Below the pieces are notes generated by a model. It had not been told where the DNA came from, ran no database searches, and saw nothing but the letters and a program-made list of their open reading frames with translations. From the IMG/VR virus record IMGVR_UViG_3300035135_000378, positions 5,907 to 69,906 of that record: 64,000 nucleotides of DNA, one strand, 5' to 3'. This document shows, piece after piece, positions 42,066 to 44,628 of this stretch. Numbering within the stretch: the first letter of the stretch is position 1; the number at the start of each line of letters is the position of its first letter. Made by a program: the position numbers and the translations under genes. Origin of the DNA: a virus. Lineage: Duplodnaviria; Caudoviricetes.

Positions 42066-42073
42066 TATTTATA
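42066..42073 (-). promoter_or_regulatory. T4-type late promoter (nested in a sigma70-like TTGACA-16-TATACT)
   Basis: TATAAATA upstream of 42026. Confidence 0.7.
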
Positions 42074-42746
42074 TGTCAAGGGCGTTGTGCGAATTTTCTG
42101 CGTTGTACTGTGCAATAGTTTCACGAAGTGGACGAACCCAGTTGTCACGATGTTCGATAAAGATCTGTGGTTCGTGGTTGTCAACTGAGATGATTGTCAC
42201 TAACTGTGTGATCGGACGACCTGTTCGTTCTTCCCACATGATTGCGTAGGCAGACTCTTGCATGAAATAGTTTTTGATCCAATCGAGTCGTTTAGGTTTG
42301 AGGCTTGTCTTGAAATCAATAATAGAAAGACGACCGTCAAACTCAGCAACGCAATCGACGCGACCAGCAACTCCCAGATGCGTTGAGTAGAGAGGTGCTT
42401 CCTGTGCGTAAACTCGGCCAATACGAGTATCAAGAATGGGCTTAAGATCAATAAAGCTACTGATAATGTCTGGAGTGTATCCATCTTTGAAGTTCTCTTC
42501 GTTGTTGATGTACTTCTCAACGATGGCGTGTACGGCAGTCCCCCGTGTTGATGCACGGTGAGAGATACGGTTCGCTTCTTCGTGTCCTACGCGGGCCCGC
42601 CACTTGGCGATAGACTCTCGCGATAGGATAGAAAGTACAGTAGTAATAGAAGGAAGGTTCATACCTTCCGGTGTTTTGTACTCACGGCGACCGTTTCGGT
42701 TCTCCGTTTTCATTTCCGTCAGCTCAACGGGGACATGTTCAAACAT
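42069..42746 (-). CDS. PD-(D/E)xK exonuclease (Cas4/RecB-like phage exonuclease)
   Basis: PSITTVL, RGT.VH, AGRVDC, IIDFKTS, Q..AY. Confidence 0.9.
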   Translation of the reverse strand: MFEHVPVELTEMKTENRNGRREYKTPEGMNLPSITTVLSILSRESIAKWRARVGHEEANRISHRASTRGTAVHAIVEKYINNEENFKDGYTPDIISSFIDLKPILDTRIGRVYAQEAPLYSTHLGVAGRVDCVAEFDGRLSIIDFKTSLKPKRLDWIKNYFMQESAYAIMWEERTGRPITQLVTIISVDNHEPQIFIEHRDNWVRPLRETIAQYNAENSHNALDI

Positions 42747-42779
42747 AATAAATCACTTGTCAATAATATAATGAAGAAT

Positions 42780-42965
42780 CCTCATGGGTGCGGAACCTTC
42801 GCGGTACTGATATGTGTACTAGACCTTATAACTTGCTGTGACCTTGGGTCACTTACCGTCCGCGGCATAAGGTGGACATGCGCGTCTGAGTTGAGAGATT
42901 CTAACGGTTTACAAATTACCGCATCACTGCGAGTCTTAGTAGTACCAGTTCCGCACCCCATGAGG
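42780..42965 (-). ncRNA. putative novel structured RNA (~186 nt)
   Basis: 17-bp terminal helix CCUCAUGGG(G)UGCGGAAC/GUUCCGCACCCAUGAGG, further stacked helices, GUGA GNRA hairpin, GUGACC-CAA-GGUCAC hairpin. Confidence 0.7.
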
Positions 42966-42978
42966 AAACTGTTAAACT

Positions 42979-43054
42979 TGGTGGAGCTAGAGGGAGTCGA
43001 ACCCACGACCTCTTGAATGCAAATCAAGCGCTCTCCCAACTGAGCTATAGCCCC
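42979..43054 (-). tRNA. tRNA-Ala(UGC)
   Basis: GGGGCTA acceptor with G3:U70, TTCGA T-loop, TGC anticodon, encoded CCA; 76 nt. Confidence 0.95.
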
Positions 43055-43062
43055 ATAACCAC

Positions 43063-43070
43063 TATTTATA
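43063..43070 (-). promoter_or_regulatory. T4-type late promoter for tRNA-Ala and ncRNA
   Basis: TATAAATA 8 nt before tRNA 5' end. Confidence 0.75.
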
Positions 43071-43073
43071 CAA

Positions 43074-44474
43074 TTAATCACACCCAAGTTCTTGACGTGA
43101 CACCTCATCATTATTGATGGGACAGTTGCCGCTGGGTAGAGACTCAGGGACATATCGCATCAAGTTAGGGTCACGCAAACTGTTCTCAAGGAACAACACT
43201 AGGTTTGCGATTTCGTCTTCGGTCAAGTCCACCGGCATAAACCGGAAGTCCAACTCGTGCATGTCAACTTGTGGGTGTTGTGGTACTGCATCTACCTTGT
43301 ATCGCACCACGTCTTCCACACTACTAAACGATGCACCATGTCCGAAGACTGTTGTATCTATAAGATTATAAAGCGGTGGTACCTTGAACTTAAACTTGTC
43401 CAACTCATCACCAGTAAAGCCACCACGACCTTCACGTGTCGCGTCGTTAACCTCACCAATCGTATCTTCCCAGATGTCCAGATCATGGAACCCAAGAGTC
43501 ATAAAGACATCGTCTGCCATTGCACCTACAGGTGACGACAAAGCAGGACCGTTGTGACATGAATTACAGTTAGCCTTACCAAAAAATACCTTCGCACCTT
43601 CGATCTCTTCGAGAGTCATCGCGTCGTCATCACCACGCAGAAACTCTTGGAATGGTGCCTCGTTTGCAAGGATGGTACGTTCATATGCAGCGATCGCAAG
43701 ACCTGCGGCCTCTAACATATCGTCGGGTTCTGCGACACCGAACGCATCTTCGAACATCTGACGATATGTTTCGTTGGTGCGTAGTAGTGATTCAGAATTG
43801 TCCGTACCCATACGGTGGACACCAAGACCTGCGATGGCCTGCGTCACGAGACCCGCATAGTTACGTAGGTTGACTTCTTTAGGAGTACCCTCAGTGAAGT
43901 GGCGGTCTGGATCGATACCAATGTTGACCACACCACCAATCATGTTACCGAACTGACCATTCCACAACATCACCTCTTGGTATGCAGTGTTCAGTACAGT
44001 AGGCGACGTTACAGGCTGTACGTCAACATCTGCAAGGTCAACACCTTCCATGACCATGCGATGGTCGAATCCGATACCACCTTCACCGATACCCTGACGG
44101 ATACCAGACTTGAATCCGTTCTGCGCATTGTGACATGACGCACACGAGAACGTACCTTCACTGGACGCGATCTCACCCGCAGTGATACCAGTCTCGTGGT
44201 AAATCAACTTACCTAGTGCGACCTTCTCTGCAGTGATTGGGTTACTTGGATCTTGCGGAATGCTATCGAAGTCATCACTCGCGGGTAGGATGAAGTCTTC
44301 GGGAGTACCCATCAACTCAAACAATTCGTCCTTTGCGACCGTCTTGGGGTCAGGCGCTGGTGTGGTTACGGGTGTAGACGTAACGGGTTCCACGGGTACA
44401 GGTGATTCCGCCCCTCCCCCGCTACATGCGGAAATAACTAGAGTAGATGCTAGTGTCATCGTCAACTTGTTCAT
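43074..44474 (-). CDS. di-haem cytochrome c peroxidase (CcpA/MauG family) lipoprotein
   Basis: lipobox ISAC; CASCH and CNSCH; AIAAYERT, FKVPPLYNL; start moved to ATG 44474 because the longer ORF runs through tRNA-Ser. Confidence 0.9.
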   Translation of the reverse strand: MNKLTMTLASTLVISACSGGGAESPVPVEPVTSTPVTTPAPDPKTVAKDELFELMGTPEDFILPASDDFDSIPQDPSNPITAEKVALGKLIYHETGITAGEIASSEGTFSCASCHNAQNGFKSGIRQGIGEGGIGFDHRMVMEGVDLADVDVQPVTSPTVLNTAYQEVMLWNGQFGNMIGGVVNIGIDPDRHFTEGTPKEVNLRNYAGLVTQAIAGLGVHRMGTDNSESLLRTNETYRQMFEDAFGVAEPDDMLEAAGLAIAAYERTILANEAPFQEFLRGDDDAMTLEEIEGAKVFFGKANCNSCHNGPALSSPVGAMADDVFMTLGFHDLDIWEDTIGEVNDATREGRGGFTGDELDKFKFKVPPLYNLIDTTVFGHGASFSSVEDVVRYKVDAVPQHPQVDMHELDFRFMPVDLTEDEIANLVLFLENSLRDPNLMRYVPESLPSGNCPINNDEVSRQELGCD

Positions 44475-44497
44475 AATATATCTCTCAACTGTGTGTA

Positions 44498-44599: not shown

Positions 44600-44628
44600 A
44601 CTATACACGAGTCCACCACTCGTGTCAA
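44600..44628 (-). promoter_or_regulatory. sigma70-type promoter for tRNA-Ser and peroxidase
   Basis: TTGACA-17-TATAGT; spacer lies in ACACGAGT/ACTCGTGT inverted repeat. Confidence 0.7.

Follow-up and report, generated by a model that had tools for sequence, protein, structure and literature searches.

Does the DNA between the tRNA-Ala gene and the exonuclease gene of an uncultured T4-like phage encode a functional RNA and, if so, what kind of RNA is it? The question is raised by a 186-nucleotide (nt) stretch on the minus strand, at positions 42780-42965 of the 64,000-nt segment of IMG/VR virus record IMGVR_UViG_3300035135_000378 that was analysed here (hereinafter, the window) and that is part of a 69.9-kb virus contig. 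From the sequence only, the initial annotation of this segment proposed an unannotated structured RNA that is transcribed together with tRNA-Ala from a late promoter and, as a speculation, acts as a decoy for RNA polymerase in the manner of 6S RNA. We find that the observation is confirmed, whereas the interpretation is partly supported. The stretch almost certainly belongs to a conserved family of 150-200-nt structured non-coding RNAs, the structure of which is very well supported.

A conserved family of phage RNAs

The initial annotation had named a search for homologs with analysis of covariation, along with an Rfam scan, as ways to check its proposal. Through the protein sequence of the exonuclease encoded downstream, we retrieved 80 loci from IMG/VR, and in approximately 37 of these, a tRNA-Ala gene is located 200-400 nt upstream of the exonuclease gene, with a related RNA directly behind the tRNA. 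We trained a covariance model, R1, on eight sequences from a clade other than that of the window copy. This model recovered all the loci with tRNA-Ala and the RNA and gave a full-length match to the window at 42775-42969 on the minus strand, with 51.4 bits and an E-value of 1e-11. With a second model (R2), the window copy scored 82.6 bits (E = 3e-19) and was the only one detected, be it in the window or across the entire contig; there is one copy of the RNA per genome. A motif scan of metagenomes yielded eight further members, from marine samples, and the family now stands at 32 or more distinct sequences, taken from contigs of IMG/VR, metagenomes of marine origin and the GenBank genome of phage C48C1.

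Phage C48C1 (156 kb, filed under Kyanoviridae), for which a literature search found no paper, is the nearest relative in GenBank; the gene order is shared, and the C48C1 RNA occupies the syntenic place, with a closing stem that differs in sequence and keeps its pairing. A blastn search with three members against 50,697 phage records returned C48C1 only. The exact 18-mer of the closing stem (P1, see below) has no match in IMG/VR because this stem covaries. The core motif, in the pattern of the majority clade only, was not found in 185,579 prokaryote species, each represented by one genome, so that a host-derived origin of the RNA is unsupported. The search with R2 detected no copy in T4 or in the cyanophages S-PM2, S-H9-2 and MED4-213; in the three cyanophages, the exonuclease gene directly follows phoH. 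In five relatives with 73-82% identical exonucleases, contigs as long as 148 kb lack the RNA, the equivalent gene junction is occupied by protein-coding sequence, and no similar tRNA-Ala was found either, so the tRNA and the RNA behave as one accessory cassette that is gained or lost together. The DNA sequencing runs that hold the locus come from wetland and seawater metagenomes. The family was found only in a single lineage of T4-like phages, uncultured and of marine and wetland origin, which C48C1 represents in GenBank.

Structure, covariation and strand

The 186-nt stretch has a minimum free energy of -78.7 kcal/mol, whereas 200 sequences shuffled with their dinucleotides preserved gave -52.0 +/- 4.3 kcal/mol (z = -6.2), and none of these folded equally well. 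The helices that had been read initially (P1-P4 and P6-P8 in the numbering used here) are all present on the minus strand (Table 1). Helix P1, with 17 base pairs (bp) in two segments of 6 and 11 pairs and one bulged G, closes the molecule and, together with P2 and P3, forms a rod of approximately 30 bp, with A-rich internal loops on the 3' side. The rod opens into a junction with two optional hairpins, P4 and P8, and the P5-P6 arm. Hairpin P4 is absent from three members (L049, L055 and L059) and has a GNRA loop only in the window copy, and the covariation of P8 is weak (2 of 4 pairs, in 7 sequences). The P5-P6 arm ends in an asymmetric loop, in which about 13 unpaired nucleotides, including UCUCUCA, face an opposite strand of 0-4 nt; this loop is closed distally by the 5-bp hairpin P7. 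A pseudoknot between UCUCUC and the AGA ahead of P3 was considered and rejected because it is inconsistent between clades.

Comparison of the family members provides strong support for this fold. In a model-guided alignment of 21 distinct sequences, standard pairs fill 95.1% of the pair cells, 43 of the 57 pairs change on both sides, and the covariation score is 0.449, whereas controls in which the 3' partners were slid by 1-3 columns give 31-47% pairing, 7-16 pairs with changes on both sides and scores of 0.05-0.07; none of 500 shuffles matches the observed values. Because the alignment was fitted to the model, an alignment-free test of the helix arms was added. The P1 arms of the same molecule pair with -41.9 +/- 4.4 kcal/mol, compared to -24.1 +/- 6.6 kcal/mol for pairing with the arms of diverged members, and in 21 of 26 sequences, the molecule's own arm was unbeaten by any foreign arm. 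MAFFT combined with RNAalifold on the raw sequences missed the long-range helices, which is an alignment artefact.

Compensatory changes back helices P1 through P6, and P7 is the sole helix without covariation; since P7 never varies, covariation speaks neither for nor against it. The UCUCUCA sequence is invariant in 23 of 23 and in 26 of 26 aligned members and belongs to a contiguous, asymmetric block of invariant sequence, GA-UCUCUCA-A ... G.GCAU ... AUGCC. A scaffold that is free to change provided that pairing is kept, with one loop and one hairpin fixed, is the most informative feature of the family, and the fixed stem of P7, among other helices that covary, points to sequence-specific recognition.

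Could the conserved entity be an element that functions at the DNA level, such as an origin, a recombination or packaging signal, or a homing target, rather than an RNA? The opposite strand of 42780-42965 also folds well (z = -4.2), and in one locus (L030) the 3' half of the element is duplicated around an inserted segment, both of which such an element would accommodate. However, the orientation relative to the tRNA is fixed, G-U occurs at 24 pair positions versus A-C at 12, as fits an RNA read on the tRNA strand, the family covariance model gives approximately 20 bits on the reverse strand against 150-200 bits on the forward strand, and covariation of a multi-branched structure is typical of RNA. 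We consider a role at the DNA level extremely improbable.

In the L030 locus (IMGVR_UViG_3300025874_000006; L030:1025-1500), a complete copy of the RNA, the promoter and the initial ~36 nt of the exonuclease gene are followed by the inserted segment, which has its own TTGACT-17-TATAAT box, a non-coding stretch of ~110 nt and a strong terminator; behind the insert, the 3' half of the RNA and the promoter appear a second time, ahead of an intact exonuclease gene. Rfam gives no match to the insert, the fold of which is not significant (z = -1.5), and the arrangement looks like an insertion with a target duplication of ~200 nt.

No open reading frame (ORF) conserved across the family members was found. 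Accordingly, the 31-amino acid (aa) 'hypothetical protein' annotated within the structured RNA of C48C1 (CDS0083, WJE87956.1; L002:4216-4311) is probably a misannotation. In the window, an ATG-initiated ORF of 123 aa spans both tRNA-Ala and the RNA (42782-43153, minus strand); it is unconserved in the relatives and surely spurious.

Linkage to the tRNA and the downstream gene

The RNA lies directly behind a phage tRNA in all 32 loci that were compared, and this tRNA is tRNA-Ala in all but one. The distance from the CCA to the RNA, read initially as 13 nt in the window and borne out by the ARAGORN prediction of the tRNA, ranges from 0 to 13 nt in the 32 loci, and the spacer always ends with UUU or UUC ahead of CCCC. 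No promoter box is detectable between the tRNA and the RNA in any of these loci, whereas the late-promoter box TATAAATA, correctly placed upstream of the tRNA by the initial annotation, precedes the tRNA by no more than about 60 nt in 25 of the 32. The proposal of an unannotated structured RNA on the tRNA strand that is physically coupled with tRNA-Ala is supported. The partner tRNA itself has been exchanged: at least three sequence types of tRNA-Ala and one tRNA-Asp (L055) occupy the same place. In this member, the 5' arm of P1 is partly duplicated in tandem (AUCCCUUACGGGUAU / AUCCCUAACGGGUAU; L055:1257-1300).

On the other side of the RNA, every member carries a U-rich tail behind P1, for example, AUCUUUUUU, AUUCUUAU or ACUUUUAU; in some members, this tail is strong (AUCUUUUUU). 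In most clades, a TTGACA-17-TATAAT promoter comes next and then the exonuclease gene. The clade that includes the window (with C48C1, L003, L005 and L008) is arranged differently: the ATG of the next ORF, be it the exonuclease or a small membrane protein, is located 12 nt after the TTGACA box, so that this box is not part of a working promoter there. With no complete sigma-70 promoter in this clade, the downstream gene must be read through the element.

These observations bear on the possibility that the element acts solely in cis, ending or insulating the tRNA-Ala transcript and capping the downstream mRNA against RNase E, with no function as a free RNA. Such a role is compatible with the fixed place between the tRNA and the next transcription unit, with the GC-rich P1 followed by a U-rich tail in all members, with the position of the element as a 5' mRNA leader without a complete promoter in the window, C48C1, L003, L005 and L008, and with the promoter behind the element in the other clades, as expected of a terminator or insulator. 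However, it requires P1 only, leaving ~130 nt of covarying internal helices unexplained; the invariant 7-nt loop and hairpin are kept across clades with different downstream arrangements; a simple terminator scan does not call the element, in which the P1 stem encloses ~150 nt; and the relatives handle the same gene junction without it. A role solely in cis thus appears improbable to us, and the product is probably a discrete, stable RNA rather than merely a leader or a terminator.

The coordinates of the features in the window are given in Table 1.

Table 1. Features of the locus in the window, in the 5' to 3' order of the minus strand
Feature	Position	Strand	Evidence and remarks
AGUUGAGAGAU, 11-nt perfect complement of the loop	44480-44490	-	5 nt ahead of the di-haem peroxidase ATG; candidate target, not significant versus shuffled loops (p about 0.1)
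Late-promoter box TATAAATA, T4-type	43063-43070	-	sequence reading; 8 nt upstream of tRNA-Ala; putative promoter activity
tRNA-Ala, anticodon UGC, encoded CCA	42979-43054	-	ARAGORN; Rfam tRNA, 69 bits
A/U-rich spacer (13 nt) between CCA and RNA	42966-42978	-	likely tRNA 3'-processing site; predicted cleavage
Structured RNA, P1 5' arm through P1 3' arm	42780-42965	-	fold z = -6.2; covariance models R1 and R2
P1 5' arm	42948-42965	-	pairs with 42780-42796; 14/17 pairs change on both sides
P2 5' arm, GGUACU/AGUACC	42941-42946	-	pairs with 42803-42808; 4/6 pairs change on both sides
P3 5' arm, ACUAAGAC/GUCUAGU	42933-42940	-	pairs with 42818-42824; 7/7 pairs change on both sides
P4 hairpin CGCA-GUGA-UGCG, variable module	42920-42931	-	4/6 pairs change on both sides
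P5 5' arm	42911-42918	-	pairs with 42827-42836; 7/7 pairs change on both sides
P6 5' arm, ACCGUU/GACGGU	42903-42908	-	pairs with 42855-42860; 5/5 pairs change on both sides
Loop strand between P6 and P7, single-stranded	42885-42902	-	core UCUCUCA at 42892-42898, invariant and unpaired in the consensus
P7 hairpin, G.GCAU / AUGC.C stem, variable loop	42861-42884	-	3/5 pairs never vary; 0 change on both sides
P8 hairpin GUGACC-CAA-GGUCAC, optional module	42838-42852	-	in about a third of the members; weak covariation
P1 3' arm	42780-42796	-	fold, covariation and arm-duplex test
A/U-rich tail right behind P1	42764-42779	-	terminator-like in some clades, weak in the window
TTGACA box	42758-42763	-	12 nt ahead of the exonuclease ATG
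PD-(D/E)XK exonuclease gene, conserved 3' neighbour	42069-42746	-	Pfam PDDEXK_1; 225 aa; ATG at 42746

The exonuclease of the window is 86% identical to the C48C1 protein annotated as 'exonuclease'. The small ORF that precedes this gene in C48C1, L003, L005 and L008 encodes a conserved single-helix membrane protein of ~45 aa, with its ATG 12 nt past the TTGACA box (L002:4290-4460); in the window (42746-42763), the membrane ORF is deleted and the ATG of the exonuclease occupies the same spot, and in L016, an unrelated small ORF is found at this position, without the TTGACA box. In one clade only (L029, L030, L033, L037, L040 and L045), the RNA and the TTGACA promoter have between them an extra conserved hairpin, GUGAC..N14-16..GUCAC, which lacks a U tract and is located ~5-30 nt behind the RNA. 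In L011, L012, L015 and L020, only 6 nt separate the end of the -10 box (TACTAT/TATTAT) from the ATG of the exonuclease gene, so the exonuclease mRNA of these phages may be leaderless or nearly so.

Comparison with known RNAs

At the gathering threshold, Rfam recognizes only six tRNAs in the whole window, and nothing relevant was detected over the locus at E <= 10. The only RNA gene called by ARAGORN and Rfam at this place is the neighbouring tRNA-Ala, in agreement with the initial reading that the element is not a tRNA, a transfer-messenger RNA (tmRNA) or a signal recognition particle RNA; a weak match to permuted tmRNA (16 bits) falls for the most part on the tRNA, at its 3' end, and includes no more than the initial ~20 nt of the RNA.

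The proposal that had been made for the function is that of a 6S-like decoy, that is, a mimic of an open promoter that sequesters sigma-70 RNA polymerase late in infection and thereby favours late transcription. The likeness consists in a size of ~185 nt (186 nt in the window), the pairing of the ends in a long closing stem and one large loop; the late-promoter box upstream fits the proposed timing, and the ~13-nt single strand could, in principle, be copied. However, the 6S models (RF00013 and 6S-Flavo) give no match within 42600-43150, either at the gathering threshold or at E <= 10. In the structure of 6S RNA with RNA polymerase, the long 6S duplex fills the downstream-DNA channel of the enzyme, whereas the RNA described here, rather than being an unbranched rod with long helices on both sides of a bubble that is open on the two strands, has a branched fold with a one-sided bubble (0-4 nt on its 3' side) that is capped by a 5-bp hairpin instead of a long duplex. 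It thus lacks two defining features of 6S RNA, the model match and the rod architecture. Furthermore, 6S RNAs conserve shape rather than sequence, whereas here it is the sequence of a 7-mer and a hairpin that is invariant. A 6S-like function, accordingly, has very little to recommend it.

Small stable RNAs encoded in phage tRNA clusters have been known since the discovery of species 1 and 2 of phage T4, the parallel drawn by the initial annotation. In the T4 genome annotation, the respective genes, rnaC (species 1) and rnaD (species 2), are located behind tRNA-Arg, and the two systems are alike in that non-tRNA structured RNAs are found behind a tRNA gene, on the tRNA strand, in T4-type phages. 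The T4 RNAs, RNAC and RNAD, are made late and have no known function (PMC9697503). The family described here differs from rnaC, which has a tRNA-like T arm (GGUUCGAAUCC), in lacking this arm, in being longer and in possessing the 17-bp closing stem. Homology with the T4 RNAs was considered and rejected: R1 found nothing at E <= 0.1 in the T4 tRNA region, R2 found nothing in the whole T4 genome and, with filters off, R2 scored rnaC at 4.6 bits (E = 1.3) and had no match to rnaD. The parallel with species 1 and 2 thus holds as an analogy of place and of presumed timing and fails as homology.

Similar in terms of the putative biogenesis is the Escherichia coli 3'ETS-leuZ, a simple cellular RNA of ~50 nt that derives from a tRNA 3' trailer and acts in trans by base pairing. 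The phage RNA begins 0-13 nt behind the tRNA and shares its transcription unit, as expected of small RNAs from tRNA 3' trailers, and the origin from a tRNA trailer, with the 5' end produced by tRNA processing and the 3' end at a stem followed by a U tract, is what we propose here. The difference is that the phage-encoded RNA is 150-200 nt long and multi-branched, and its processing and pairing are predictions. Small RNAs that present CU-rich loops to ribosome-binding sites (RBSs) include Yfr1 of cyanobacteria as well as RsaE and RNAIII of staphylococci, with their C-rich loops. The family RNA shares with these an ultra-conserved, unpaired, pyrimidine-rich motif between helices that is complementary to purine-rich RBSs; it differs in that no Rfam match is detectable, the scaffold is much bigger, UCUCUCA takes the place of CCUC/UCCC as the motif, and the targets are candidates only.

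Systematic comparative genomics of IMG/VR phages has yielded 8,495 candidate structured RNAs, including tRNA-adjacent and terminator-containing motifs (PMC10690425). These candidates (Fremin et al. 2023) come from the same contig collection, and their motifs are 29-151 nt long. Taken together, the RNAs described here appear to be a new family, unrelated to T4 species 1 and 2, within the known kind of phage tRNA-linked stable RNAs.

Possible function

What could the invariant loop recognize? The complement of UCUCUCA, UGAGAGA, is a motif of RBS type in this phage and occurs at 10 sense-strand sites in the window, six of which are located 5-10 nt before the ATG of an ORF of at least 50 aa; the commoner RBS of this phage is AGGAG-like. 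One of the sites, the 11-nt perfect complement listed in Table 1, belongs to the neighbouring gene for a di-haem cytochrome c peroxidase/MauG-type lipoprotein (Pfam CCP_MauG, E = 5e-25). This gene begins 24 nt after tRNA-Ser and has the RBS UUGAGAGAU (window 44472-44490, minus strand). In C48C1, a 9-nt match to the loop lies within the 5' leader of CDS0111. Two other complementarities were dropped: an 8-nt segment of E. coli 23S rRNA (UUGAGAGA), which is variable and base-paired in the bacterial large-subunit consensus, as a chance match, and the D arm of tRNA-Ala (UUGGGAGA; 8 bp with one G-U), which has no equivalent in the partner tRNAs of L030, L049 and L055, as a conserved interaction in cis.

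In our reading, the TATAAATA late promoter would drive the joint transcription of the tRNA and the RNA, which, in the window, are probably also reached by read-through from an early promoter at 44600-44628; the late timing is something that we infer from the promoter box only. The 5' end would be generated by cleavage of the tRNA 3' trailer at the conserved A/U-rich junction, and the 3' end would be located at the U-rich tail, with P1 serving as a terminator stem, an exonuclease cap, or both. The product would be a stable small RNA, with a covarying scaffold that displays the CU-rich loop, itself invariant, to some conserved partner. Perhaps, the loop pairs with purine-rich RBSs (UGAGAGA, or GGAGG via G-U pairs) on host or early phage mRNAs, blocking ribosomes. 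We assign a probability of roughly 45% to the reading as a whole, namely, a stable RNA from the tRNA-Ala transcript with a CU-rich loop that acts on RBS-like sites. With respect to its parts, we lean slightly towards a processed, stable by-product of the tRNA-Ala transcript that acts in trans via the invariant loop and hairpin, whereas a purine-rich, RBS-like RNA as the partner of the loop is a tentative proposal, even if it is the single most likely mode. The most far-reaching version, in which the loop of an abundant, nuclease-proof RNA is a free-floating anti-Shine-Dalgarno look-alike that masks the purine-rich RBSs of both host and early phage mRNAs or soaks up a factor reading the 16S rRNA 3' end, is a doubtful one.

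Parts of the RNA occur in contigs from sequencing runs of RNA or putative RNA. In two runs from two studies, Logan contigs join tRNA-Ala to the first 27-144 nt of the RNA copies of relatives, with loose ends at 42979; these contigs come from relatives with 90-97% identity, and positions 42813-42913 of the window lie outside their cover, a gap from which nothing follows. One of the two runs is recorded as RNA-seq and the RNA label of the other is a guess, with carry-over of DNA possible, so that these contigs are weak evidence, of presence in the libraries rather than of transcription, ends or abundance.

Several observations weigh against the proposed action of a stable RNA on RBSs. The RNA-run contigs, being derived from relatives, leave the window's own copy uncovered and show neither transcript ends nor abundance. 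In the window clade, the next ORF starts 33 nt after P1, so the element is also an mRNA leader and P1 is not a tight terminator. Compared to shuffled loops, the best duplex at the translation starts of the window has p = 0.12 and the top five duplexes have p = 0.07; the 9-mer complement is no commoner than the reversed control in five genomes; and in two other genomes with the RNA, the sites fall inside coding regions. The C48C1 ortholog of the peroxidase gene keeps only 7 bp and one G-U of the 11-nt match, and the same type of RBS (UUGAGAGAUAUUGUUAUG) is present in L336, a relative without the RNA. Finally, base pairing alone leaves the invariant stem of P7 unexplained, which points equally or more to a protein partner.

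Indeed, the RNA might be a decoy or scaffold for a protein, with the invariant strand and P7 forming a sequence-specific site for a conserved protein of the host or the phage (candidates include S1 or another pyrimidine-binding protein, nucleases and defence factors) and the long rod serving only to stabilize and display the site. That P7 alone among the helices never covaries, that the invariant block is contiguous and asymmetric, like a protein operator, and that the tests for RNA targets are not significant all argue in this direction. By contrast, no candidate protein co-occurs with the RNA in the data examined, in which the gene content with and without the RNA was not compared; the neighbouring genes, for the exonuclease and the peroxidase, have no known RNA-binding role; and Rfam detects no likeness to catalogued protein-binding RNAs. 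Taken by itself, this explanation seems to us unlikely, and yet a protein partner is nearly as likely as pairing with RBSs because it better explains the invariant P7 stem.

Implications

The family merits an entry in RNA family databases, which would correct the 'hypothetical protein' call in C48C1, and since this genome of a cultured phage carries the RNA, the function is testable if the host is available. Should the stable RNA indeed act as an anti-Shine-Dalgarno look-alike, it would be an RNA-based counterpart of the translational shut-off by RegA and RegB in T4. The exchange of the partner tRNA suggests that a tRNA can be a swappable processing handle for another RNA. The family is a second, much better constrained RNA of phage tRNA clusters, in which the invariant loop and hairpin point to the likely seat of the function.

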